A stretch of DNA of 64,000 nt, from contig JAXLTY010000001.1 in assembly GCA_046329815.1 (NCBI GenBank), forward strand, positions 869,471 to 933,470, in the 5' to 3' direction. Source of the DNA: Chitinophagales bacterium. GTDB taxonomy: Bacteria > Bacteroidota > Bacteroidia > Chitinophagales > JADIYW01. The position numbers and the translations under genes were made by a program. Below, one piece after another: positions 8,107 through 27,383 of the stretch. How positions within the stretch are numbered: position 1 is the first letter of the stretch; each line of letters begins with the position of its first letter. Under the pieces are notes generated by a model. The model saw nothing but the letters and a program-made list of their open reading frames with translations. It did not search any database and had not been told where the DNA came from.

Positions 8107-9444
8107 TTACAGATTCAACACATTACGTTTGAATTGTTTGCCTCTGTCTTCGTAATTTTCAAATAAATCGAAACTTGCGCAACATGGTGATAATAAAACG
8201 ACATCGCCTTTATCGCTTATGTTATAAGCCATTTGCACCGCTTGTTCCATTGATTGCGTATCAACTATGTAACCCACTTCTGACGCAAATGCCTCGTGCA
8301 ATTTTTCATTATCTTTTCCTAAACAGATAATTGCTTTTACTTTTTTATTTACTAAATCTTTGATCAATGTATAATCATTTCCTTTATCAACACCGCCTAA
8401 AATAAGCACTGTTGGTTTTGTCATCGACTCTAACGCATACCATGTAGAATTTACATTGGTTGCTTTGGAATCATTAATAAAATCTACATTTCTGATCGTT
8501 GCAACAAATTCTAAACGATGTTCTAAATTTTTAAAATCTTCTAATGACTCGCGAATTTTGTCGTTGCGTACACCGACTAATTTTGCAGAGATGGCTGCAG
8601 CCATTGAGTTGTAGGAATTGTGAATTCCGTGGATAGCTAAATCACTTGTTGGCATGGTAAAATTGTTTTTATTGATGTTAATTATTAATTGATCTTTGTC
8701 GATGTAAGCTCCATTTTCAATAGGTTTGAAATAAGAAAATGGAATTTTTTGTACTTCGTTATTTGCTTTAGAAAGATTATTCATTGTTACTTCATCATCG
8801 TAGCAATAGATAAAATAATCTTCTTTGGTTTGATTTTTTGTGATGGAAAATTTTGAGTTAATATAGTTTTCAAATTTATAATCATATCGGTCTAAATGAT
8901 CTTCAGTGATGTTGCATAACACACTAACCAATGGTTTGAACGTTATACAATTATCTAACTGAAAAGAAGACACTTCCAATACAAAGTATTCTTTATCGCC
9001 ATTTGCTACCTGGCGTGCATAGCTTGTTCCGATGTTACCGCCAAGACCAACATTATATGCTGCTTTTTCGAGAATATGATAGATCAAAGATGTCGTTGTC
9101 GTTTTTCCGTTAGAACCAGTAATTGCTATTACTTTGGCTGATGAATAACGAAACGCAAACTCGATTTCAGAAATAATCTCAATATTTTTTTCTTTGACTT
9201 TTTTGATGATCGGCGCTTTATCAGGAATACCAGGACTTTTGATAATTGTAGTTGCTGATAAAACAATTTCTTCGGTATGCTTTTCTTCTTCGAATGCAAT
9301 ATTCAATGCAAGCAGCTCTTGTTTGTACTTGTCTTTTATTTTACCAAAATCAGAAACAAACACATCCATACCTTGCTTTTGTGCAAGAATAGCTGCGCCA
9401 ACACCGCTTTCGCCACTACCTAATATGACTATTTTTTCGTTCAC
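8107..9444 (-). CDS. murD: UDP-N-acetylmuramoylalanine--D-glutamate ligase
   Basis: GSGESG Rossmann N-terminus and GSNGKTTTT P-loop; dcw position. Confidence 0.9.
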   Translation of the reverse strand: MNEKIVILGSGESGVGAAILAQKQGMDVFVSDFGKIKDKYKQELLALNIAFEEEKHTEEIVLSATTIIKSPGIPDKAPIIKKVKEKNIEIISEIEFAFRYSSAKVIAITGSNGKTTTTSLIYHILEKAAYNVGLGGNIGTSYARQVANGDKEYFVLEVSSFQLDNCITFKPLVSVLCNITEDHLDRYDYKFENYINSKFSITKNQTKEDYFIYCYDDEVTMNNLSKANNEVQKIPFSYFKPIENGAYIDKDQLIININKNNFTMPTSDLAIHGIHNSYNSMAAAISAKLVGVRNDKIRESLEDFKNLEHRLEFVATIRNVDFINDSKATNVNSTWYALESMTKPTVLILGGVDKGNDYTLIKDLVNKKVKAIICLGKDNEKLHEAFASEVGYIVDTQSMEQAVQMAYNISDKGDVVLLSPCCASFDLFENYEDRGKQFKRNVLNL

Positions 9445-9447
9445 TGC

Positions 9448-10752
9448 TTATCTGATTTTTAAGGTTACAAAAGTGATTACCGCTAACAACACACTTACGA
9501 TGATAAAACGTGTTACAATCTTTGATTCGTGATAACCGAGCTTTTGATAATGATGATGTAATGGTGACATTTTAAAGATTCGTCTGCCTTCACCATACAT
9601 TCTTTTGGTGTATTTAAAGTATGCAACTTGCAATGTTACAGACAATGTTTCTGCAAAGAATATTCCGCATAAAACAGGAATCAACAATTCTTTTCTAACA
9701 ATCAATGCGATAGTTGCGATAACGCCGCCAAGCATCAAACTGCCTGTGTCGCCCATAAATACAGTTGCAGGAAATGCATTGTACCACATAAAACCAATGC
9801 ATGCACCAACGATTGCGGCACACACAATCACGACTTCCGCAGAATCAGGAATATAGAGTACGTTTAAATAATCGGCTAGTTTTATATTACCACTTACATA
9901 TGCAAAAATCGCCAGCGTCATCATTACTACAATAGAAACACCGGAAGCCAAACCATCAATACCATCGGTAAGATTGGCTGCATTAGAAACTGCTGTAATA
10001 ATAAAAATCACAAATGGAATAAAGATAATCCAACCCCATTTTTGATAATCTTTTGTGAATGGTTTTAGCAAATAAGTATAGTCTAACAAATTGTCTTTTA
10101 TAAACGGCAAGTTTGTTTTTAATGCTTTGGTCTGATGCGATAAATATTCATCACCAACACGTGTGCCAATGTTTTCGTACATTACAGAAGCTGTCGGCAC
10201 TACTTCTTCCGGATTATTCCAGTCAATTTTATTCTCTTTGTCAACTTTATAAATAAATACATTATTAAAATCGCGGCATTTAACGTCAGGATGAAAATAT
10301 AAAGTACAGCCAACTATCAAACCTAAAACTACCTGTGCTAAAATTTTAAATTTACCACGCAAACCTTCTTTATCTTTTTTAAAAACCTTGATGTAATCAT
10401 CAATAAAACCAATAGCACCCATCCAAAGCGTAGAAACCAATAACAAAATTACATACACATTATTCAGACGCGCGAATAACAATGTCGGAATAACAATGGC
10501 AGCAATTATGATAACGCCACCCATTGTCGGTGTTCCTTTTTTCTGCACTTGTCCTTCCAAACCTAAATCACGCACACTTTCGCCGATCTGCATTTTTTGC
10601 AAACGCTGAATAACGCGCTTACCAATTACAACAGAAATTATTAATGACAACAAAACCGACATTGCACCACGAAATGTGATGAACTGAAACAAACCACCGC
10701 CTGGTATGTCGATGTCATGTTGTTCTAAAAATTTGAAGAAATGATATAGCAT
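9448..10752 (-). CDS. mraY: Phospho-N-acetylmuramoyl-pentapeptide transferase
   Basis: Polytopic membrane protein with [13 protein letters not shown] motif characteristic of MraY; dcw position. Confidence 0.9.
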
Positions 10753-16504: not shown

Positions 16505-18052
16505 TTGCGGATAATTTTGGAAAACAATTTGCTGAAATGGCGCAGCTATTCTATTTTGAGCAACAATTTGCTGTTAATTGCATTTAATACTTGTATGGAA
16601 AATCATCCGATTGTTTTATTAGTTCAGAAAATTAATTTGCATTATGCAAAAGAAATCGCTGCGTTTTGGAAAGTGTCTTCAAAGAAAAGAAGTTCTAAAT
16701 TTTATCAATTAATCAGCTCGGCAAAAAACAATGAGCAATTGCAGAAAGAATTACTTTTTAAAAAATTATTTGCTAAGCCATATACAGAAAAAAACGATTA
16801 TTTGTGGCGCAATGAAATCCGCGTATTGAAAGAAGAACTTGAATATTTTTTAATACAAAAAGAACATGACTATTTTTCTAAAAACAATCAAGCATATAAT
16901 GATTGGTTATTAATACATGCTTATGATAAATTAAAATTTACAGATGGCATTGATGAAAAATATGAAACGTTATTGAAAGAAAAAGACAATTACGCTTCGT
17001 ATGCTTTTGTAATGGATGCTTGTTTATTAGAATTGCATAATCTGCATTTTAAAATTTCTGATTTGACTAAACGTTTACATGCTTATCCTGAACAAATTCA
17101 GCAAACCAAGCACGTCTTGAACGATATGATATCTGCATACTGTTCGAAACTGAATGTATATCTTACACATTACAACTGGATATGTTACAACCATCAGCTA
17201 GAACAACGAGAACCACTATTACTGAATGAACATCATTTTATTTTTGAAAATAATCCGATCAGCAATTTTCATAATAATTATGCATTGTCTTTTACAACTT
17301 CAGATGATCCGAATTACTTTGAAACACAAGTTAAACACTTAAATAATGCTATAGAAATCATTGAACCGCTTTACAAGCATAATAAATTATTATTGGAGAG
17401 CCGTTTCCTGGCATTGATAGGAAAAGGTCGTGAATTATCAGCGAATGGATATTTTTTAGAAGCGCACGAAACATTAAGTAAGATTAAAGCTGATGCTGAT
17501 AAACTGAATACACATAACAAAACAATTTTTTATGTGAACTATATTATTAATCTGGTGAAATGCCGGTTTTATAATGAAGCGCTGCATGCTTTAGATCATG
17601 AATTTTCGTCAGATAATTTATTGTATAAAAACATGCTGTTGCAAAGTCGTTTACTTTGTTATTTGTTTTTGCGCGACTCACAACAATTAGAAAAATATAT
17701 CAGCTACGATCTGGATGCAGCGCCATTTCCACAAAACTATGTTTTGAAGATTATCAAGTCGGCATACTTTTATTTAATTGGTGAATATGAAACGGCACTG
17801 TCAATAATCAACAGTTTAATGCAGGCAAAATATGCTACTGATAAGATGCACTATCATCAGCCGATTTCTGCTATTTACAAAAAACTATACACGATAAAAC
17901 AAAAGAATGCTTCGCAAAAAAAGATACCGGTAAAAGATATTAAAACATTACAAAATGCAGTAAAAGCATATGATGATATTGCACCACCTGAATTCAGGCA
18001 AGTATCCGTTTTTCTTTGGTTAAAAGAAGAAATCAATAGAAATAACGAATAA
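16505..18052 (+). CDS. Hypothetical all-helical cytoplasmic protein; paralogue of 59034-60506
   Basis: No signal peptide or TM helix. FAKPYTEKNDYLWRNEIRVL aligns with FKKKYTKNNDMQLRNEMKRL of the second copy at the same offset if translation starts at Met31 (ATG 16595), so the true start is probably 16595. Confidence 0.6.
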   Translation: MRIILENNLLKWRSYSILSNNLLLIAFNTCMENHPIVLLVQKINLHYAKEIAAFWKVSSKKRSSKFYQLISSAKNNEQLQKELLFKKLFAKPYTEKNDYLWRNEIRVLKEELEYFLIQKEHDYFSKNNQAYNDWLLIHAYDKLKFTDGIDEKYETLLKEKDNYASYAFVMDACLLELHNLHFKISDLTKRLHAYPEQIQQTKHVLNDMISAYCSKLNVYLTHYNWICYNHQLEQREPLLLNEHHFIFENNPISNFHNNYALSFTTSDDPNYFETQVKHLNNAIEIIEPLYKHNKLLLESRFLALIGKGRELSANGYFLEAHETLSKIKADADKLNTHNKTIFYVNYIINLVKCRFYNEALHALDHEFSSDNLLYKNMLLQSRLLCYLFLRDSQQLEKYISYDLDAAPFPQNYVLKIIKSAYFYLIGEYETALSIINSLMQAKYATDKMHYHQPISAIYKKLYTIKQKNASQKKIPVKDIKTLQNAVKAYDDIAPPEFRQVSVFLWLKEEINRNNE

Positions 18053-18193: not shown

Positions 18194-18604
18194 ATGAAAA
18201 CAATACATAAAATAATACCATCGGCTATACTCTTAGTTTTTTTGTCATTACTAAATTCCTGCTCGCAAAATGTTTTAGATGTTGGTGACAGATATAAAAT
18301 AGTTTTTTGGTTTAATGAAGTAAACTCAAGATTACTATTAGATGACAACGCTGAAACCTTAACTTTTTATGTTAATGGCAATGCTGTAGCAACATCTGCT
18401 GTTGATGATGTTTACTGGGAAACAGCACCATCGTGCGATGACAGCAGTGCCATAATTACTCATGCAGACTTGCTTCCTAAAAACAGAACTATTTTTTATA
18501 AAGTAACAGACCAAACCGGTTTTGAATACTTTAACGGTACATATACACTGGTAGCAAATTCCTGTAATGTTATTGAAATCGGACCGGTTACCAAGTTCAA
18601 ATAA
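18194..18604 (+). CDS. Small lipoprotein, hypothetical
   Basis: Signal peptide plus lipobox LLNSC; 136 aa; weak similarity (FYVNGNAV vs LFNGNAL) to the next gene. Confidence 0.55.
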   Translation: MKTIHKIIPSAILLVFLSLLNSCSQNVLDVGDRYKIVFWFNEVNSRLLLDDNAETLTFYVNGNAVATSAVDDVYWETAPSCDDSSAIITHADLLPKNRTIFYKVTDQTGFEYFNGTYTLVANSCNVIEIGPVTKFK

Positions 18605-18639: not shown

Positions 18640-19068
18640 ATGAAATCAATTAAAATTATGTTGCCGGTATTATTACTATTGGCTGCGACTATCAGCACAA
18701 GCTGTAAAAAAGACAAAACAAAAGTACAGACCGAATTACCTTCCAATTATTCGAATCAAGGTACAGTAATTGTAAAAAGTAAAAACATTTCTATCTGTAT
18801 TTATGATAACAGTGTGGAAGATGGCGATATCATTGATTTATTATTTAACGGAAATGCACTGATCAATGATTATGAAATATTGAATACGGAAAAATGCTTT
18901 AATGTTACACTTGAAAACGGCAACAACTGGATCGGTATTAATGTAGATAATGAAGGAACCAATCCACCGGCTTCTGTTACTGTAAAAATTGATGATGGCG
19001 TTACTGAACAAGAGTTCGACATCGATGGTGAAGTTGGTGCGCCTGGTGGCTACATCATTAAACTATAA
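18640..19068 (+). CDS. Small lipoprotein, hypothetical
   Basis: Signal peptide plus lipobox ISTSCKK; 142 aa. Confidence 0.55.
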   Translation: MKSIKIMLPVLLLLAATISTSCKKDKTKVQTELPSNYSNQGTVIVKSKNISICIYDNSVEDGDIIDLLFNGNALINDYEILNTEKCFNVTLENGNNWIGINVDNEGTNPPASVTVKIDDGVTEQEFDIDGEVGAPGGYIIKL

Positions 19069-19126: not shown

Positions 19127-19153
19127 TATAAGCGAAGCTGCAGTGCTTCGTTT
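19127..19153 (+). terminator. Intrinsic terminator after the lipoprotein pair
   Basis: Stem cgaagc/gcttcg followed by a TTTTTTT run; a second 10-bp stem (aaatgtcttg/caagacattt) lies at about 19099-19134. Confidence 0.45.
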
Positions 19154-19155
19154 TT

Positions 19156-20397
19156 TTATCGGATATTTCTATAATTGGAAATCCATTGATACGCGATAAA
19201 GCCAATAAAATAAGCCGTTCCGATAGTAATACCTAAACCTTCATTAAAGAAACAAGCAATTAAAGCCAGCAAACCAACACCAGCCAAACCGAATGTATAA
19301 TACGTCATAAAACCGACGCGCTTGCGTTCGCTCATTGAATAAAAACGACCCAATGGAATCAATACCGTTGCCGCATAAATAGCAATGTAAACCATCATGT
19401 AATTATGCAACGTAAAATACAACACCACACTTATGATAGCTGTCAGTAAACAAACTGCGACAATATTTGCAGACATCTTTTCATCATCATCTAATGCATA
19501 TTTTCCAAATGAATCGAAACGTAAGAAAATATTTGCAAATGGTTCGATGAACCAGGTTAAATAAGCAAAAAACATCAGCGCAATATATGGAAGCCAAAGA
19601 AAAGAATATTGTGTTGCCAGACCACCAATTACTTTTGTTCCGAAATAAACACCTAAAATAAAAATCCATTGCATGCTGCCTTGTTGTTTTGCAATCCAAA
19701 ACTGATAGTTTAAAAAGAAACGATAAATCGGATTTTTTGTACGAATAATTTCTTTCATACCTTCTTTTGCATGATGATTATTCGGATTTATTTTTAATGC
19801 TTCCATGAAATGCATACGCGCCTCATTTCTGTCGCCAATTTCCAGTTTCGACCAGCCAATATTTGCATGCGAAAACGCATCTTCCGGATTGTTTGCCAAT
19901 GTTTCTTCAATACTTGACAACAACTCTTCTTTGCGGTTCAATTTCGTTAAGCATATGGTTCTGTAATTCAAACAAGTGGTGTTTTCCGGGTCAGCATTCA
20001 AACCTTCATTTGCATATTCCAGTGCAATTTCCCATTTCTTTTTATCTATATACAACGCAGATAAAAACGCGAAGAAATCGGCGTCCAATGGTTCAAGCTC
20101 TATTGCTTTGCGAATCATGGTTTCCGCTTCATTCGGCTTTTCAATCATATTCAGATACACCGCACGATAATAATAGGAAACACCATCATCAGGCGCAGCA
20201 GCTAATAACTTCTGTGTGTATTCATCTTGTTTTTGCTCATCTTTCAGTTGAATATATGTACTCGTTAAAAGCACCAAAGCCACATAATTATTCGGATCAA
20301 TAATTAATGCTTTTTGCAATTCAGGAATTGCCTGATCGTATCTTTTTAAATGAATTAAATTACGTGCGCGCTCAATATGCTGATCTATGATATCCAT
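19156..20397 (-). CDS. TPR-repeat protein with C-terminal 4-5 TM helix membrane domain
   Basis: About 220 aa of TPR-like helical repeats followed by hydrophobic helices (WIFILGVYFGTKVIGGLA, LWLPYIALMFFAYLTWFI and others). Its ATG (20397-20395) abuts the stop of the upstream AAA gene. Confidence 0.65.
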   Translation of the reverse strand: MDIIDQHIERARNLIHLKRYDQAIPELQKALIIDPNNYVALVLLTSTYIQLKDEQKQDEYTQKLLAAAPDDGVSYYYRAVYLNMIEKPNEAETMIRKAIELEPLDADFFAFLSALYIDKKKWEIALEYANEGLNADPENTTCLNYRTICLTKLNRKEELLSSIEETLANNPEDAFSHANIGWSKLEIGDRNEARMHFMEALKINPNNHHAKEGMKEIIRTKNPIYRFFLNYQFWIAKQQGSMQWIFILGVYFGTKVIGGLATQYSFLWLPYIALMFFAYLTWFIEPFANIFLRFDSFGKYALDDDEKMSANIVAVCLLTAIISVVLYFTLHNYMMVYIAIYAATVLIPLGRFYSMSERKRVGFMTYYTFGLAGVGLLALIACFFNEGLGITIGTAYFIGFIAYQWISNYRNIR

Positions 20398-21738
20398 TTA
20401 TTTTTTAATTTTTAAATATTTCAGAATATCGTCATACAAGCCACTTTCATTGGAATACAATGCATAGTTGCGTGCTGTGGCAAACCATTCTTTAGTCGTT
20501 GCTTTATGTTTTGAAATCGCGTTTTTTAAATCTGCATTATTCACCGGAATAATTTTTCCTTGTTTCATCGATTCAGGTAATTTTGATTCAATCGCCACAT
20601 CGACAACCGCTTTCAAATCAGCGCCGGAATATTCTTCTGTAATTTTTGCGATGCCTGCATAATCAATATTATCAAACGGTTTTTCATGTGATAATAATTT
20701 CAGAATTTCTTCGCGTGCTTTCAAATCCGGCGGCTGTACAAATACGATTCTGTCAAATCGACCTGGTCTTCGGAAAGCTGTATCTAAATACCACGGACAA
20801 TTCGTTGCTGCTAAAATTAAAACACCTTCGTTCGAATATTTCACGCCATCTAATTCATCCAAAAACTGATTAATAATGAATCTTCCTGTTGCATTGCGCA
20901 TATCACTACGGCTTGCACCTAACGCATCTACTTCATCAAAAAACAACACACACGGCGCATTCACACGTGCTGCTTCGAAAATATTATGCAGATTTTTTTC
21001 ACTGTTTCCCATCCACATATCCAGCACTTCATTAATTCCAACAGAAATAAAATTGGCATTAATTTCGCCTGCTGTTGCGCGTGCTAACATCGTTTTACCA
21101 CAACCTGGTGGTCCATAAAACAAAATACCACCACCAATTTTTTTACCAAATGCTTTATAAATTTCAGGATTGTTTAACGGATGAATTACTTTCAACGCAA
21201 TCTCTTCTTTCATCGCTTCCATACCGCCAACATCGCTGAATTTTATTTTTGGTTTTTCAATATCGCTTTGCAGTAAAATTCCATTCACAAAATCATCATC
21301 GCCAGCAGAAACACTTGTTGCTGTTCCGGATTGTTTTATTTGTGTATTCAAATCATTTTCGTAAGCAACATCTTTCAATTGATTATTCAGAGCAATTGCT
21401 TTATCGTAATTCACTTTTGCCTGTTGAATTTCCTGTTGTGCCAAATGATTCTTTGATAAGAAAAAATATGCATCTGCATTTGTTTTATCGGTTTCAATAA
21501 TTTCTTCCAACACCACTTGTGCCGCGCTGTATTTATGCAAATAAAAAAAACATTTCGACAAACCTAATTTCAAACCCAGATCGTTTTGCGCAAACTGCAA
21601 TGCGTTTTTATATTCGGTTTCTGCTTCGATGTAATTAGCTGTATTGAATAATGCTTCGCACAATAATTTTCGTAATGAAATGTTATTCGGTGAAAATTGC
21701 AATGCGTCTTTCAGTGAGTTGATCTGTTCCTGATTCAT
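20398..21738 (-). CDS. TPR-fused single-module AAA+ ATPase (classic clade)
   Basis: N-terminal ~160 aa of TPR-like repeats. Walker A GPPGCGKT, Walker B VLFFDEVD, and second region of homology ILAATNCPWYLDTAFRRPGRFDRIVFV. Confidence 0.8.
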   Translation of the reverse strand: MNQEQINSLKDALQFSPNNISLRKLLCEALFNTANYIEAETEYKNALQFAQNDLGLKLGLSKCFFYLHKYSAAQVVLEEIIETDKTNADAYFFLSKNHLAQQEIQQAKVNYDKAIALNNQLKDVAYENDLNTQIKQSGTATSVSAGDDDFVNGILLQSDIEKPKIKFSDVGGMEAMKEEIALKVIHPLNNPEIYKAFGKKIGGGILFYGPPGCGKTMLARATAGEINANFISVGINEVLDMWMGNSEKNLHNIFEAARVNAPCVLFFDEVDALGASRSDMRNATGRFIINQFLDELDGVKYSNEGVLILAATNCPWYLDTAFRRPGRFDRIVFVQPPDLKAREEILKLLSHEKPFDNIDYAGIAKITEEYSGADLKAVVDVAIESKLPESMKQGKIIPVNNADLKNAISKHKATTKEWFATARNYALYSNESGLYDDILKYLKIKK

Positions 21739-21873
21739 TTATTTTTAATTTATTAAACACCGCTAAACTATAAAAAAGCAGGCACTTGTTTTCATAAATT
21801 TGGTTATTATTTATTGATATAAATTGGCTGATTTTCTGTTATTTTCTGCTTATTTTTGAGCAAATATTAATTT

Positions 21874-23254: not shown

Positions 23255-24253
23255 CTATTTATTTGCTGTCATCATTTTATAATCCGTAAATCTGCCTTCA
23301 CTATTATTGACTTCTATCTGGTAAATATAATTTGCAGATGCTAAACCAAGTGTTTGCATATTTAACTGAACATTGTGCTCACCTGCATTTAAATTCTTTT
23401 GTTCAATTTCTGAAATCATTTTTCCTGACAAATCATAGATCTGAATTTTCACATCTGCTGATTTTTTTAGCATAAAAGGAATTATAGTGTTATTATTATA
23501 TGGATTCGGATAATTTTGTTGTAACACAAATTGTTTGGCTGTTTCTTTTTCTACATGGCTGATAACACCATTACCTTGAACAGTAACTTCAAGATATGCA
23601 TCATAGCCACCGGTTGTGTTGTTTGGTGTCAGAGACGCCAATTGATACGCATAGCCATCTGAGAAAATATTGTCAGCGCCATAACTTGTCGTACCATCAG
23701 CACCTTTTGTATAAAGCGAAGAGTTGGCTGCGTAAATAGCATTCTTCGTTGCGATATCAAACGTAAGCTGCGAGATTGCTGCATAAGACGAACTTACATA
23801 CACCTGAAAATGGATATGACAAATTCTGCCGGTGTACCAACCTGGAAAAATCGTAACAAAATTCACTTCGCCATTGGCATCCGTCATTTGATAACCGCGT
23901 AAATAGGTTAAACCGGCTTGTCCTGCATTGTTCGTTTGGCTATAACCTGAATACAAACCATCTTTATCGCAATGCCAAACATTTACTCTTACATTCTGCA
24001 TCGGCAAACAATTATTAAGTCCTAGAATTTTCAATTTTAGATTTAATCGCGTGCCAGTTTTGTTTTCGCGAATATCTTGCCTGAAATAATACGTGTTTGC
24101 TGTCAGGTCTAATGGAAACGGACCGGCAGTTTCTGATGGAATCAATACACACGAACCTGTTGCTTCTGTTTCGTCTGCAAATAATTTGCTGTTTGGCAAA
24201 GCGATTCCAAGACTTGCTAAACCAATACCTTTTAAAAAATCTTTTCGTTCCAT
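23255..24253 (-). CDS. Secreted intradiol ring-cleavage dioxygenase-like protein with T9SS (Por) C-terminal sorting domain
   Basis: VNVWHCDKDGLY and TDANGEVNFVTIFPGWYTGRICHIHFQVY align to the VEMWQANAGGRY / TDSDGYYSFRTIKPGPYPW...HIHF blocks of protocatechuate 3,4-dioxygenase beta. The C-terminal 85 aa show the NYPNPYNNNTIIPF...VKIQIYDLSGK T9SS CTD pattern. N-terminal MERKDFLKG is Tat-like. Confidence 0.65.
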   Translation of the reverse strand: MERKDFLKGIGLASLGIALPNSKLFADETEATGSCVLIPSETAGPFPLDLTANTYYFRQDIRENKTGTRLNLKLKILGLNNCLPMQNVRVNVWHCDKDGLYSGYSQTNNAGQAGLTYLRGYQMTDANGEVNFVTIFPGWYTGRICHIHFQVYVSSSYAAISQLTFDIATKNAIYAANSSLYTKGADGTTSYGADNIFSDGYAYQLASLTPNNTTGGYDAYLEVTVQGNGVISHVEKETAKQFVLQQNYPNPYNNNTIIPFMLKKSADVKIQIYDLSGKMISEIEQKNLNAGEHNVQLNMQTLGLASANYIYQIEVNNSEGRFTDYKMMTANK

Positions 24254-24279
24254 GTTAATGAGTTATTTTTGATTAAAAT

Positions 24280-24798
24280 TTATTCAATATTACTAAATGA
24301 GTGTATATTCAACATTGCTTGCATTGCAATCAAATTCGTTTCAATTTCTTTATTTTGCTTATAATTATCCAGTTGATTTTCATTTGCAACTAACAAATGA
24401 TTATTCATAACATTCAATAAAATAAGTGGTTCTGACACAAACAGAATTGTGAACTCATGCAACTTTTTATTGGTTGTATCAGAATTGATCAGTTGAAATT
24501 TAAAATTTGAAAATGGAATACATGCAATATTCTGTGTATTATTCAGATCAGGAATTATTTTATTGAGTTGTTTAATATTTTCTAACGCAGCTTTGCTAAC
24601 CAAATAATGTAATTTTTCCGCTTCAGGATTTTGAGCTAATAAATTTAAAAATATGGTTTCCTGATTCTGCTGATTAAAATGTGCCGACTGCATTTTATAT
24701 TCCAAATAGGTATTTTCAAAGACAATGCGATCCCATTTTTTCAATGTGTTTGAATCAATTGTTTTTAAAAAACTTAGCCGAATTATTCCTTGCTGCAT
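24280..24798 (-). CDS. Hypothetical cytoplasmic protein between the two dioxygenase-like paralogues
   Basis: 172-aa ORF in the co-directional gap; no recognisable motifs. Confidence 0.4.
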   Translation of the reverse strand: MQQGIIRLSFLKTIDSNTLKKWDRIVFENTYLEYKMQSAHFNQQNQETIFLNLLAQNPEAEKLHYLVSKAALENIKQLNKIIPDLNNTQNIACIPFSNFKFQLINSDTTNKKLHEFTILFVSEPLILLNVMNNHLLVANENQLDNYKQNKEIETNLIAMQAMLNIHSFSNIE

Positions 24799-24866
24799 AC
24801 TTAAGTTTTAAAAAGTGACTTTGATAATTACTTATCAAAGTCACACTCATTATAAAAAACAAAAAA

Positions 24867-25598
24867 TCAAAACGCTGCATAAATTGTTTTTGTCAAAACA
24901 TATCCTGCAGCTACAGAACCAGTTAACGAATCACAAATATTTTGCGACAAAGAATCCGAAAAAACACCATCTGACGAATTCGATGTTCCTTGAGTTCCTT
25001 TATTATAATAAGTAGTTGCTGTTGTATAAACTGTATTACTTACCAATTCGGTAAATGCAATTTGTGTAATCAATTTACTCACGCCGCTTGAATTGTAAAT
25101 ATGCACATGTATGTGTGGCGCGCGACCATTATACCAACCCGGATACACGGTAGTAAAAGACACTTGTCCATCAGCATCTGTTTGTTGTTTGCCGCGCAAA
25201 TAATCGTAAGCAGTAGCGTCAACAGTTTGCATGCCACCGCTGTTCGACGGACCAAATTCAGAATACAAACCATCTTTGTTACAATGCCAGATCTCAACAT
25301 AGCAACCAGGCATTACCGCACAATTATTGTTCGTATTTTTAATCACAATATTCACCGTCAATGTAGTACCTAATTCTCCGTCGCGAATATCGCTTCTAAC
25401 ATAACCAGCTGATGCGAAAAATATGGCATCGCCTCTTGTTGTCGGAAACGGACCTTCCGTTTCTGTTGGGCTTTCTGTGCAATTTCCATTCGTAGTATTA
25501 GTATCTTTTTTGCAACCAACGGCTAATGGTGCAACCGCTGCCACACCTAAAGCAGCAAAACCTTTCAATAAAAAATCTTTGCGTTCCATAAAAATCAT
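24867..25598 (-). CDS. Intradiol dioxygenase-like lipoprotein (paralogue of 23255-24253, no T9SS CTD)
   Basis: VEIWHCNKDGLY and TDADGQVSFTTVYPGWYNGRAPHIHVHIY; N-terminal MERKDFLLKG...AVGCKK (Tat-like motif plus lipobox). Confidence 0.65.
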   Translation of the reverse strand: MIFMERKDFLLKGFAALGVAAVAPLAVGCKKDTNTTNGNCTESPTETEGPFPTTRGDAIFFASAGYVRSDIRDGELGTTLTVNIVIKNTNNNCAVMPGCYVEIWHCNKDGLYSEFGPSNSGGMQTVDATAYDYLRGKQQTDADGQVSFTTVYPGWYNGRAPHIHVHIYNSSGVSKLITQIAFTELVSNTVYTTATTYYNKGTQGTSNSSDGVFSDSLSQNICDSLTGSVAAGYVLTKTIYAAF

Positions 25599-25680: not shown

Positions 25681-26370
25681 TTAAAAATTATTTTCTATCT
25701 GTTTCATAAAAAATTCTTCATAAGAAATTCCGATTGGAATCTCAACATTATTGATGAAGACGCTTTTATTTTTTACAATCTCTATTTTATTAATTGCAAC
25801 AATAAAAGAGCGATGAACGCGAATAAAATGCGTAGCAGGTAATTTTTCCAAGATTGCTTTTAACGTATATCGTACAACGATTGGTTTTGCATTTTTAAAG
25901 AATATCTTGATATAATCATCCAATGCTTCAATGTATAAAATTTCATCAGAAAATATTTTTTCATGACCTTTATCTGTTTTTATAAAAAAAGAATGTAAGG
26001 CATTATTGAAGATAATTTTGGATGCTTTCTGAACTGCGCGCTCAAACCTGTCAAACGGAAATGGTTTTAGTAAATAATCTACAGCATGCAAATAATAAGC
26101 AGACAATGCATAATCCGGAAATGCGGTAGTAAAGATAACCGGTATTTCTTTTTTGATCTCTAAATAAAATTCAAAGCCAGTTTTTTGCGGCATCTGAATA
26201 TCTAAAAGCAGCAACTGCACTTCATTTTCTCGAATAAAAGAAAGCGCATCGTTTGTGTTTGTAAACGTTCTTACCAGATTTATACCTGAAATTCTATTGC
26301 AATAATTTTCAATAATATCCAGTGCCAACGGCTCGTCATCTATTGCAATTGCTTGAATTATATATTCCAT
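25681..26370 (-). CDS. LytTR-family response regulator
   Basis: Receiver domain (IDDEPLALD...LLLLDIQMP) plus C-terminal LytTR DNA-binding domain (HFIRVHRSFIVAINKI). Confidence 0.85.
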   Translation of the reverse strand: MEYIIQAIAIDDEPLALDIIENYCNRISGINLVRTFTNTNDALSFIRENEVQLLLLDIQMPQKTGFEFYLEIKKEIPVIFTTAFPDYALSAYYLHAVDYLLKPFPFDRFERAVQKASKIIFNNALHSFFIKTDKGHEKIFSDEILYIEALDDYIKIFFKNAKPIVVRYTLKAILEKLPATHFIRVHRSFIVAINKIEIVKNKSVFINNVEIPIGISYEEFFMKQIENNF

Positions 26371-27383
26371 ATTTTCAGATTGACTGTATAAAAATCATTT
26401 TCTTCGTTTATTTCAAGTTCATAACTTTTTGGATACAACATGTCTAATCGCTTCCTGGTGTTGATGATTCCAAGGTTTGTTGTAGAAATTGTAACGTCTT
26501 TTGTTTCGTGTTTTTTATTTTGAATAAATAAATGAACCGCGTTTTCTTCGATGTCTATTTTAATAATAATTTCAGTTTCATATTCCGTGCTGACACCGTA
26601 TTTTATAGCATTTTCAATGAATGGTATAAAAATCAACGGTGTGATTCTTTGTTGATTTGCTGTTCCATGTATCGAAAAATTCAGTTTCGTTAATTTATTC
26701 AAACGCAATTCCTGTAAGCTAATATAATTTTGAACATACTCCAATTCATCTTTTAAAGGAATGACATTATTTTCTGTATTGATAAATGTATAACGCAACA
26801 TATTCGACAACTGCAGGATTGCATTTGCCGTATTATCGGATCTGTTCAATGCCAAACTGTAAATTCCGTTTAGCGTATTAAACAAAAAATGAGGTTGAAT
26901 TTGTCCTTTCAGCAAAGCGAGTTCAGAATTATTTTTTGCATTTTCAATTTCTTTTATACGCATATTGTTTCTTATAACAAATGACATAAAGTACGCCATT
27001 ACTGCTTTCAGAATGCTATTTTCTATGTGGATGGCAAATGGATTTTTATTTTGAAATTCAGGCGGCGCCGGGAATCTTGATGGCATTTGCATGTGTTGAT
27101 GAATCAATAAATTTGGCATAAACACAACCACGCAAATTGCAAGTGCGACTAAAAAAGCATAATGCAAATACTTTTTTTGAAAATAGAATTTTGGCAACAA
27201 ATACAAATAATGAAAATAAAAAAATAAGATGGCCAACACAGAAGTAAGCACATCTTTTCCGAATGCAGGATTTCTAAAAACACGCATAGAAAAAAAACCT
27301 TCCGGTGCTGTAATAAACGGAATTGCCAAAAACAACGATATGCAAACCACCTGCATGCCGATATTTTTGCGTTCCATATTCAT
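26358..27383 (-). CDS. LytS-type sensor histidine kinase (membrane, His_kinase/PF06580-like)
   Basis: 3-4 N-terminal TM helices; QIQPHFLFNTLNGIYSL H-box; overlaps the regulator gene by 13 nt. Confidence 0.8.
   Translation of the reverse strand: MNMERKNIGMQVVCISLFLAIPFITAPEGFFSMRVFRNPAFGKDVLTSVLAILFFYFHYLYLLPKFYFQKKYLHYAFLVALAICVVVFMPNLLIHQHMQMPSRFPAPPEFQNKNPFAIHIENSILKAVMAYFMSFVIRNNMRIKEIENAKNNSELALLKGQIQPHFLFNTLNGIYSLALNRSDNTANAILQLSNMLRYTFINTENNVIPLKDELEYVQNYISLQELRLNKLTKLNFSIHGTANQQRITPLIFIPFIENAIKYGVSTEYETEIIIKIDIEENAVHLFIQNKKHETKDVTISTTNLGIINTRKRLDMLYPKSYELEINEENDFYTVNLKIWNI

Follow-up and report, generated by a model that had tools for sequence, protein, structure and literature searches.

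A conserved bacterial gene pair encoding a TPR-containing AAA+ ATPase and a TPR-six-helix membrane protein as a candidate membrane-associated remodelling module

Introduction

Vps4-type machinery is commonly regarded as missing from bacteria, whose known membrane-associated classical AAA+ machine is FtsH. In this study, we analyzed by computation a pair of minus-strand genes at positions 19,156 to 21,738 of a 64,000-nucleotide stretch of DNA (hereafter the window) from a Chitinophagales bacterium (GenBank assembly GCA_046329815.1, contig JAXLTY010000001.1, positions 869,471 to 933,470), which encode an AAA+ ATPase bearing a tetratricopeptide repeat (TPR) domain at its N-terminus and a TPR-containing membrane protein (hereafter the partner). 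The closest described system is a bacterial gene pair in which the gene for a "VPS4-like AAA+ ATPase" is followed by a "TPR + 6TM" gene (6TM, six transmembrane helices), as exemplified by ACB74714.1/Oter_1429 of Opitutus terrae (PMC11237479, mSystems 2024). The pair was recorded there in Cyanobacteria, Bacteroidetes, Verrucomicrobia, Planctomycetes, and Nitrospirae, the N-terminus of the ATPase was labeled MIT in Table S3, and a "membrane-proximal complex" was inferred; the whole treatment is a single sentence plus a row in a table, which leaves motifs, structure, coupling, and distribution unanalyzed.

The pair in the window shares with the published one the order of a single AAA+ gene followed by a same-strand TPR + 6TM gene, which here are joined by a TAA|ATG junction and of which the second is modeled with 14 TPR helices and six long helices. 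Four of the published phyla (Cyanobacteria, Bacteroidetes, Verrucomicrobia, and Planctomycetes) were matched in our survey; Nitrospirae were not seen among the best 80 loci. The N-terminus of our ATPase differs in that it was recognized by Pfam as TPR without MIT. Because both the range of phyla and the architecture of the partner agree with the published ones, and the 6TM domain makes up a single family of one architecture, the two pairs, compared by description, almost certainly belong to the same family. The novelty implied by a first-pass annotation of this DNA, which had been made from the letters alone, thus did not hold, since the pair was already in print in 2024. Meanwhile, no experimental work on the pair was found in the literature searched, a full-text search for TPR-AAA proteins gave only EccA as a characterized bacterial TPR-AAA+ protein, and a paper on ESCRT evolution was silent on the family.

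Conservation and coupling of the two genes

The open reading frame (ORF) map of the window confirmed two minus-strand ORFs of 446 and 413 amino acids (aa) (Table 1), and the TAA stop codon of the ATPase gene (20400-20398) immediately abuts the ATG of the partner gene (20397-20395), just as the first-pass annotation had reported. The start codon of the ATPase gene was backed by the aligned N-termini of its homologues.

A genome scan with one genome per species was carried out with the ATPase alignment, which yielded at least 594 confirmed relatives, and the best 80 of these (51-68% identity, full length) were examined; they belonged to Bacteroidota, Planctomycetota, Verrucomicrobiota, Cyanobacteria, Chloroflexota, and Gemmatimonadota. 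A tblastn search with the membrane domain alone detected a same-strand downstream homologue in 71 of the 80 loci. After inspection of the remaining loci, of which four ended too early to judge, 73 of the 76 informative loci, which come from six phyla, proved to have the TPR-membrane gene behind the ATPase gene in the same orientation. Of the 64 loci in which the gap was measured, 38 have 3 nucleotides or fewer between the two genes, and in 22 of these the genes overlap. A Nonomuraea locus of Actinomycetota also carries the pair, which brings the number of bacterial phyla with it to at least seven.

All-against-all clustering of every ORF of the 80 loci showed that only the ATPase and its partner were conserved, the other large clusters being shadow ORFs, and no third conserved gene emerged in these loci. 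No protease, peptidase, or nuclease gene was linked to the pair in the window locus or in the 80 related loci, which extends an observation of the first-pass annotation beyond the window. Relatives at 70% and 88% identity retained the pair with different flanks, and the genes next to the pair in the window had no syntenic counterparts in related loci. In Chitinophagaceae, the flanks were conserved across genera and of housekeeping type (serA-like, beta-lactamase-family protein, NDH-2, YjeF, and DUF2071). In addition, no family member was detected in 2.9 million viral contigs (ATPase alignment) or in 50,697 phage genomes (tblastn), and a plasmid collection contained one true homologue, in a Nonomuraea record of 11.85 Mb that is classed there as a plasmid; the other plasmid and phage matches were generic TPR ones. 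The strong viral matches (metagenome contigs L084-L088) were Cdc48-like genes of giant-virus bins only, at 38-41% identity over the AAA module only and without TPR. Since the neighbour is conserved, the coupling is tight, and the ATPase lies outside the characterized families as described below, the two genes form a dedicated co-inherited functional unit.

Some loci depart from the simple two-gene arrangement. Two or three tandem partner paralogues follow a single ATPase gene at L001, L028, L038, L063, L024, L047, and L068; three copies of 363, 359, and 415 aa stand at L001 (3512-6939). In a verrucomicrobial locus (L062), a gene for a GDSL-family lipase/acylhydrolase (9345-10298) lies between the ATPase and TPR-membrane genes, which could be a hint of a lipid-related role or a chance insertion. 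At L001 (6961-7365) and L082 (10621-11025), which are among the closest Bacteroidota relatives (68-70% identity), a gene for a DUF423 small membrane protein stands right after the pair; it is absent from the window.

Motifs and family placement of the ATPase

Pfam identified in the ATPase one AAA domain (PF00004, 136.7 bits against a cut-off of 21.2) plus AAA_lid_3, and in its first 160 residues TPR_19 (43.8 bits) and TPR_2 (30.8 bits). Over the same 160 residues, MIT (PF04212) gave no match even at E ≤ 10, and neither Vps4_C nor Peptidase_M41 was matched by Pfam in the protein. The N-terminal TPR domain of about 160 aa noted in the first-pass annotation was borne out as to its nature and shortened in its extent, as the repeats cover about 125 aa and are followed by a poorly conserved linker up to residue 160 or so.

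Full-length homologues of the ATPase showed 51-93% identity, and in an alignment of 22 homologues the catalytic and pore residues were invariant or nearly so. All the traits of the classical AAA clade were present, namely Walker A and B, the sensor-1 Asn, the arginine fingers in the second region of homology (SRH), an aromatic-hydrophobic-Gly pore loop, and AAA_lid_3. As previously noticed, the SRH mixes a Vps4-like P-W with the RPGRFDR of the FtsH/PAN/Cdc48 type. Taken together, these motifs point to a catalytically competent translocase of the classical AAA+ clade. Conservation was not confined to the motor: the TPR domain carries a conserved S16-P17-x-N19-x-x-L22-R23 and E78-E79 in the 22 homologues, and in the C-terminal extension 14 of the 32 positions were invariant, which makes it the best-conserved part outside the ATPase core. 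These 32 residues had no Pfam match and no PDB sequence match, both at E ≤ 10.

To place the protein in a family, the NCBIfam models were applied, with a score at or above the cut-off of a model taken as a curated family call. The scores of CDC48 (222.7 bits, cut-off 802.65), FtsH (211 bits, cut-off 600), PAN (210.7 bits, cut-off 500), CdvC (184.5 bits, cut-off 650), IteA (120.1 bits, cut-off 510), and EccA (31.5 bits, cut-off 466.65, covering only aa 205-297) were all far under their cut-offs, which sets the ATPase apart from the routine members of characterized families. The best relative in the PDB was the D2 ring of p97/Cdc48 (190 bits, 42% identity). In end-to-end pairwise alignments of the AAA module, identities were 41% to yeast Vps4 (225 aa), 42% to p97 D2, 42% to FtsH, and 41% to PAN, the values being approximate. 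The model scores and these approximate identities of 41-42% favour no single family within the classical AAA clade. Because no curated cut-off was reached and the identities to Vps4, p97 D2, FtsH, and PAN are similar, the ATPase probably represents a separate lineage inside this clade. The first-pass annotation had named a routine ATPase family beside an unconserved neighbour as the outcome that would speak against a dedicated pair; these sub-cut-off scores and the partner found in 73 of 76 loci are the opposite of that outcome.

Orthologues in public databases bear the names "AAA family ATPase," "FtsH" ("ATP-dependent zinc metalloprotease FtsH"), "transitional endoplasmic reticulum ATPase," and "26S proteasome regulatory subunit." Misnamed ones, including P0010 (Emticicia aquatica, WP_238804700.1) and P0106, are without the defining domains of the families whose names they carry.

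Architecture of the partner protein

In the partner, Pfam detected multiple TPR families over aa 1 to about 215 and nothing beyond. An AlphaFold2 model built with 109 homologues (predicted local distance difference test, pLDDT, 96.8; predicted template modelling score, pTM, 0.91) comprised 14 TPR-type helices (aa 3-236), equivalent to seven TPRs, which run directly into six long helices (240-261, 265-294, 304-330, 334-354, 363-384, and 386-412). The earlier description of TPRs followed by a membrane domain was accordingly upheld, with six long helices in place of the four to five transmembrane helices first counted. A Foldseek search with the TPR part retrieved generic TPR superhelices only (consensus TPR, OGT, APC, PilF, and PEX5).

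The conserved residues of the partner were concentrated at the TPR/membrane junction and in the loop after helix 2. The TPR part ends in a conserved junction, THANxGW...YRxFLxYxFW, while TW..P..N..LR....G..AL is a conserved motif that takes in the last part of helix 2 and the loop behind it, and the loop that connects helices 4 and 5 is positively charged (SERKR). Based on the lack of a visible signal peptide, the even number of helices, the very short odd-numbered loops, and the positive 4-5 loop, we infer a topology in which the TPRs, the N- and C-termini, and the conserved loop behind helix 2 lie in the cytoplasm.

An exhaustive HMMER search with the membrane domain (C-terminal 198 residues) retrieved 1138 cluster representatives, 437 of them at E ≤ 1e-10; it was far more sensitive than a word-indexed search for homologues of the 6TM domain by itself, which gave 2 matches. 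In nearly all of the matching proteins, the match fell roughly at residues 215-410 of a total length of 400-430 aa; entries of lesser length looked truncated. The 6TM domain thus occurs almost exclusively in a TPR-6TM architecture of about 415 aa, which makes the partner a dedicated protein and not a generic TPR protein.

Proposed function and its alternatives

We consider it somewhat probable that the pair constitutes a two-component membrane machine, in which a soluble ATPase motor and a membrane receptor cooperate in the extraction or remodelling of clients. By analogy with its studied relatives, the ATPase would form a hexameric ring that threads polypeptides through the W-M-G pore loop, working on the cytoplasmic side of the inner membrane. 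The partner would serve as the membrane receptor, its seven cytoplasmic TPRs being rigidly joined to a compact six-helix bundle; it would dock the ATPase at the membrane and present clients in its TPR groove. The clients may be membrane or membrane-associated proteins, which would be unfolded, extracted, or released from a complex, and because no protease is attached, the outcome would be remodelling or extraction and not degradation. This reading is based on the anatomy of the proteins, the conserved motifs, and the strict co-inheritance of the genes, and it is further favoured by the housekeeping flanks and by the 51-68% identity of the ATPase across phyla, comparable to that of core machines. 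The membrane-anchored unfoldase or remodeller with TPR in the role of MIT, as first proposed for this locus, fits this anatomy, and the same was inferred in PMC11237479; we retain it as a conditional reading.

Several points weigh against such a machine. Contact between the ATPase and the partner is putative, as is the nature of the client, and gene adjacency by itself cannot separate an adaptor from a substrate. No fused ATPase-partner form was seen among the 150 of 1138 representatives listed. At L010, L027, and L029, a full-length ATPase gene has no adjacent partner and the next genes lie on the opposite strand. Furthermore, the membrane domain of the partner matched no Pfam family and no relative of solved fold, and so its fold gives no hint to function.

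A close rival, although in our estimate a rather unlikely one, is a cycle like that of Vps4/ESCRT-III or NSF/SNAP, in which the TPR-6TM protein would be the main substrate, forming an oligomer in the membrane that the ATPase disassembles and recycles, with the N-terminal TPR recognizing the partner tail as MIT does ESCRT-III tails. The W-M-G pore loop, the P-W of the SRH, and a gap-free Walker B-SRH segment are all Vps4-like, and the two or three tandem partner paralogues per ATPase resemble the several ESCRT-III paralogues per Vps4. PMC11237479, too, calls the ATPase VPS4-like, and the TPR-6TM gene stands where archaea have snf7. Nevertheless, the partner resembles ESCRT-III, PspA, or Snf7 neither in sequence, by Pfam, nor in fold, by structure comparison, and a polytopic protein with a long TPR superhelix would suit the role of scaffold or receptor better than that of a polymerizing substrate. 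The ATPase, moreover, has no MIT domain, and the CdvC/Vps4 model scored 184 bits, below Cdc48, FtsH, and PAN at 211-223 bits.

The lack of any peptidase domain or gene linked to the pair in the 80 loci makes it quite improbable that the ATPase supplies clients to a separately encoded protease of the FtsH, ClpP, or proteasome kind while the TPR-6TM protein plays the part of LapB. The precedent of LapB, a TPR protein anchored in the membrane that serves the AAA+ protease FtsH as an adaptor, together with a weak match of the LapB model (E = 0.0056) and the fact that the closest characterized relatives, FtsH, PAN, and Cdc48, mostly pair with peptidases, speaks for such a link. The ATPase has no M41 peptidase domain, however, and its C-terminus reads ...YLKIKK, not hydrophobic-Tyr-X, the C-terminal proteasome-docking motif. 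Even less credit was given to an anti-phage or abortive-infection pair, in which the ATPase would sense or process a phage component and the membrane protein would act as a membrane-damaging effector. A cassette of two genes, one for an ATPase and one for a membrane protein, whose flanks vary is typical of defence systems, the flanks had already changed in the relative at 88% identity, and PADLOC IetA models (best E = 7e-38) and NCBIfam IteA (120 bits) match the ATPase. The IteA score is far from the cut-off of 510 bits, though, so that the match reflects generic AAA similarity, and the IetS protease gene is absent nearby in the window and the 80 loci. The identity of 51-68% across phyla is unlike fast-evolving defence genes, the neighbours are housekeeping genes with synteny kept across Chitinophagaceae genera, and members are lacking in the viral contigs and phage genomes, with the plasmid-collection homologue confined to the 11.85-Mb Nonomuraea record; the conserved parts of the partner are putative cytoplasmic docking surfaces without a pore-like element. 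Of these explanations, the motor-and-receptor machine is the one that we prefer.

Feature coordinates and flanking sequence

The features of the locus are summarized in Table 1. The region upstream of the ATPase gene is presumed to be the promoter region of the two-gene operon; a single weak sigma-70-like match (21795->21767) was no better than those in shuffles, and a promoter was not established by it. The hairpin past the partner stop is a possible bidirectional terminator, for which the terminator scan of the window (5 sites against 2.6 expected from shuffles) lends weak support.

Table 1. Coordinates of the gene pair and its sequence features in the window
Feature	Coordinates	Strand	Evidence
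TPR + single classical AAA+ ATPase gene, stop included	20398..21738	-	ORF; Pfam AAA, AAA_lid_3, TPR_19; homologues
N-terminal TPR domain, aa ~1-125	21364..21738	-	Pfam; invariant columns in 22-homologue alignment
Variable linker from TPR to AAA, aa ~126-160	21259..21363	-	Low conservation and indels in homologue alignment
AAA+ module and lid, aa 161-414	20497..21258	-	Alignments to p97 D2, PAN/CdvC/FtsH models, Vps4
Walker A GPPGCGKT, aa 209-216	21091-21114	-	Invariant or nearly so, 22 homologues
Pore loop 1 M-W-M-G	21007-21018	-	Conserved column, homologue alignment
Walker B VLFFDEVD, aa 264-271	20926-20949	-	Invariant or nearly so, 22 homologues
SRH ATNCPWYLDTAFRRPGRFDR, aa 311-330, with arginine fingers	20749-20808	-	Invariant or nearly so, 22 homologues
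C-terminal extension TKEWFATARNYALYSNESGLYDDILKYLKIKK, aa 415-446	20401..20496	-	Past end of PAN, CdvC, FtsH model alignments
TPR + 6-helix membrane protein gene, stop included	19156..20397	-	ORF; junction; Pfam TPR; AlphaFold2; homologues downstream of ATPase
TPR superhelix of partner, aa 1-236, 14 helices	19690..20397	-	Model secondary structure; conservation
Six-helix membrane domain, aa 237-413	19159..19689	-	AlphaFold2 model
Intergenic region 5' of ATPase gene	21739..21873	-	ORF map; divergent acyl-CoA dehydrogenase gene (Pfam) on other side
GC-rich hairpin directly past partner stop, between convergent genes	19130..19153	.	Terminator-like match

A divergent acyl-CoA dehydrogenase gene borders the pair on one side and convergent orphan genes border it on the other, with a dcw cluster of the Bacteroidota type just beyond, the location next to which had been recognized at first pass and was verified by Pfam (MraZ, RsmH, FtsL_2, and penicillin-binding protein, PBP). 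Between the dcw cluster and the pair, a 515-aa ORF at 16505-18052 (+), listed with a TTG start although its true start is uncertain, is an orphan without a match in Pfam, NCBIfam, or PADLOC. It is followed by two small tandem ORFs of 136 and 142 aa at 18194-18604 (+) and 18640-19068 (+), which have lipoprotein-signal-like N-termini (…LNSCSQ and …STSCKK) and no Pfam match. On the other side, two paralogous proteins identified by Pfam as Dioxygenase_C-like, with N-termini resembling twin-arginine translocation (Tat) signals, are encoded around a 172-aa orphan at 23255-25598 (-), and one of the two has a C-terminal sorting domain of the type IX secretion kind. Genes for a LytTR response regulator and a histidine kinase (25681-27383) adjoin them.

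Significance

Specialists aware of the 2024 paper will find no surprise in the existence of this large conserved gene-pair family. What is added here is the quantified conservation of the pair and coupling of its genes, its extension to Chloroflexota, Gemmatimonadota, and Actinomycetota, the motif-level evidence for a translocase, the conserved C-terminal extension, a high-confidence partner model with a putative topology, and the evidence against defence, mobile-element, and protease-linked readings. If the ATPase docks at the membrane as we infer, the pair would be a second membrane-associated classical AAA+ module of bacteria, one that is protease-free, widespread, strongly conserved, and equipped with its own membrane receptor. 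It contains three unclassified elements, namely the 6TM domain, the 32-residue C-terminal extension, and the TPR/membrane junction. Identification of the client would add a component to bacterial membrane proteostasis or remodelling, and would put to the test the published proposal of a Vps4-like ATPase that passed from archaea to bacteria and gained a new partner. Meanwhile, the annotations "FtsH" and "transitional endoplasmic reticulum ATPase" are misleading and can be corrected.

Comparison with known systems

With Vps4/CdvC, the ATPase shares a single AAA module, the W-M-G pore loop, the P-W of the SRH, an N-terminal helical domain, and action at a membrane, the last being a proposal for the protein studied here. 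From Walker B to the SRH, Vps4 aligns with it gap-free, whereas p97, FtsH, and PAN need 3-4 extra residues. The ATPase differs from Vps4/CdvC in that it is without MIT and without Vps4_C or the beta domain, and in its SRH, which reads RRPGRFDR where Vps4 has RRRFE. No ESCRT-III/Snf7 neighbour was found among the conserved families of the 80 loci, in which neighbours were not individually profiled for Snf7/PspA. The arginine-finger segment RRPGRFDR instead resembles that of FtsH, PAN, and Cdc48, and GPPGCGKT, CVLFFDE, RPGRFDR, and AAA_lid_3 are common to the ATPase and Cdc48/p97 D2, FtsH, and PAN. It nevertheless has one AAA ring where Cdc48/p97 has D1 and D2, and no double-psi-barrel N-domain; unlike FtsH, it is without a membrane anchor and the M41 peptidase, and unlike PAN, without a coiled-coil/OB domain and hydrophobic-Tyr-X.

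EccA of type VII secretion (PMC11513918) likewise combines an N-terminal TPR domain with a single AAA+ module and works with a membrane complex, as is proposed here. It belongs to the CbbX/SpoVK clade, however, with its model at 31.5 bits against the cut-off of 466.65, and there are no type VII secretion genes near the pair. Msp1/ATAD1 and LapB-FtsH are functional analogues, each placing a classical AAA+ motor at the cytoplasmic face of a membrane, where membrane-associated clients are extracted or presented, as we propose for the pair. In contrast to LapB-FtsH, the pair has no rubredoxin domain and no protease (LapB model, 15.9 bits against a cut-off of 363), and in contrast to Msp1/ATAD1, the pair would have its anchor in a second, polytopic protein instead of in an N-terminal helix on the ATPase. 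Tentatively, and with more doubt than confidence, we suggest that the pair might be a bacterial counterpart of Vps4/ESCRT and Msp1, in which an ancient or archaea-derived Vps4-like motor had its ESCRT-III exchanged for a polytopic TPR receptor, giving a new kind of membrane extraction or remodelling in at least seven phyla of both diderm and monoderm bacteria.

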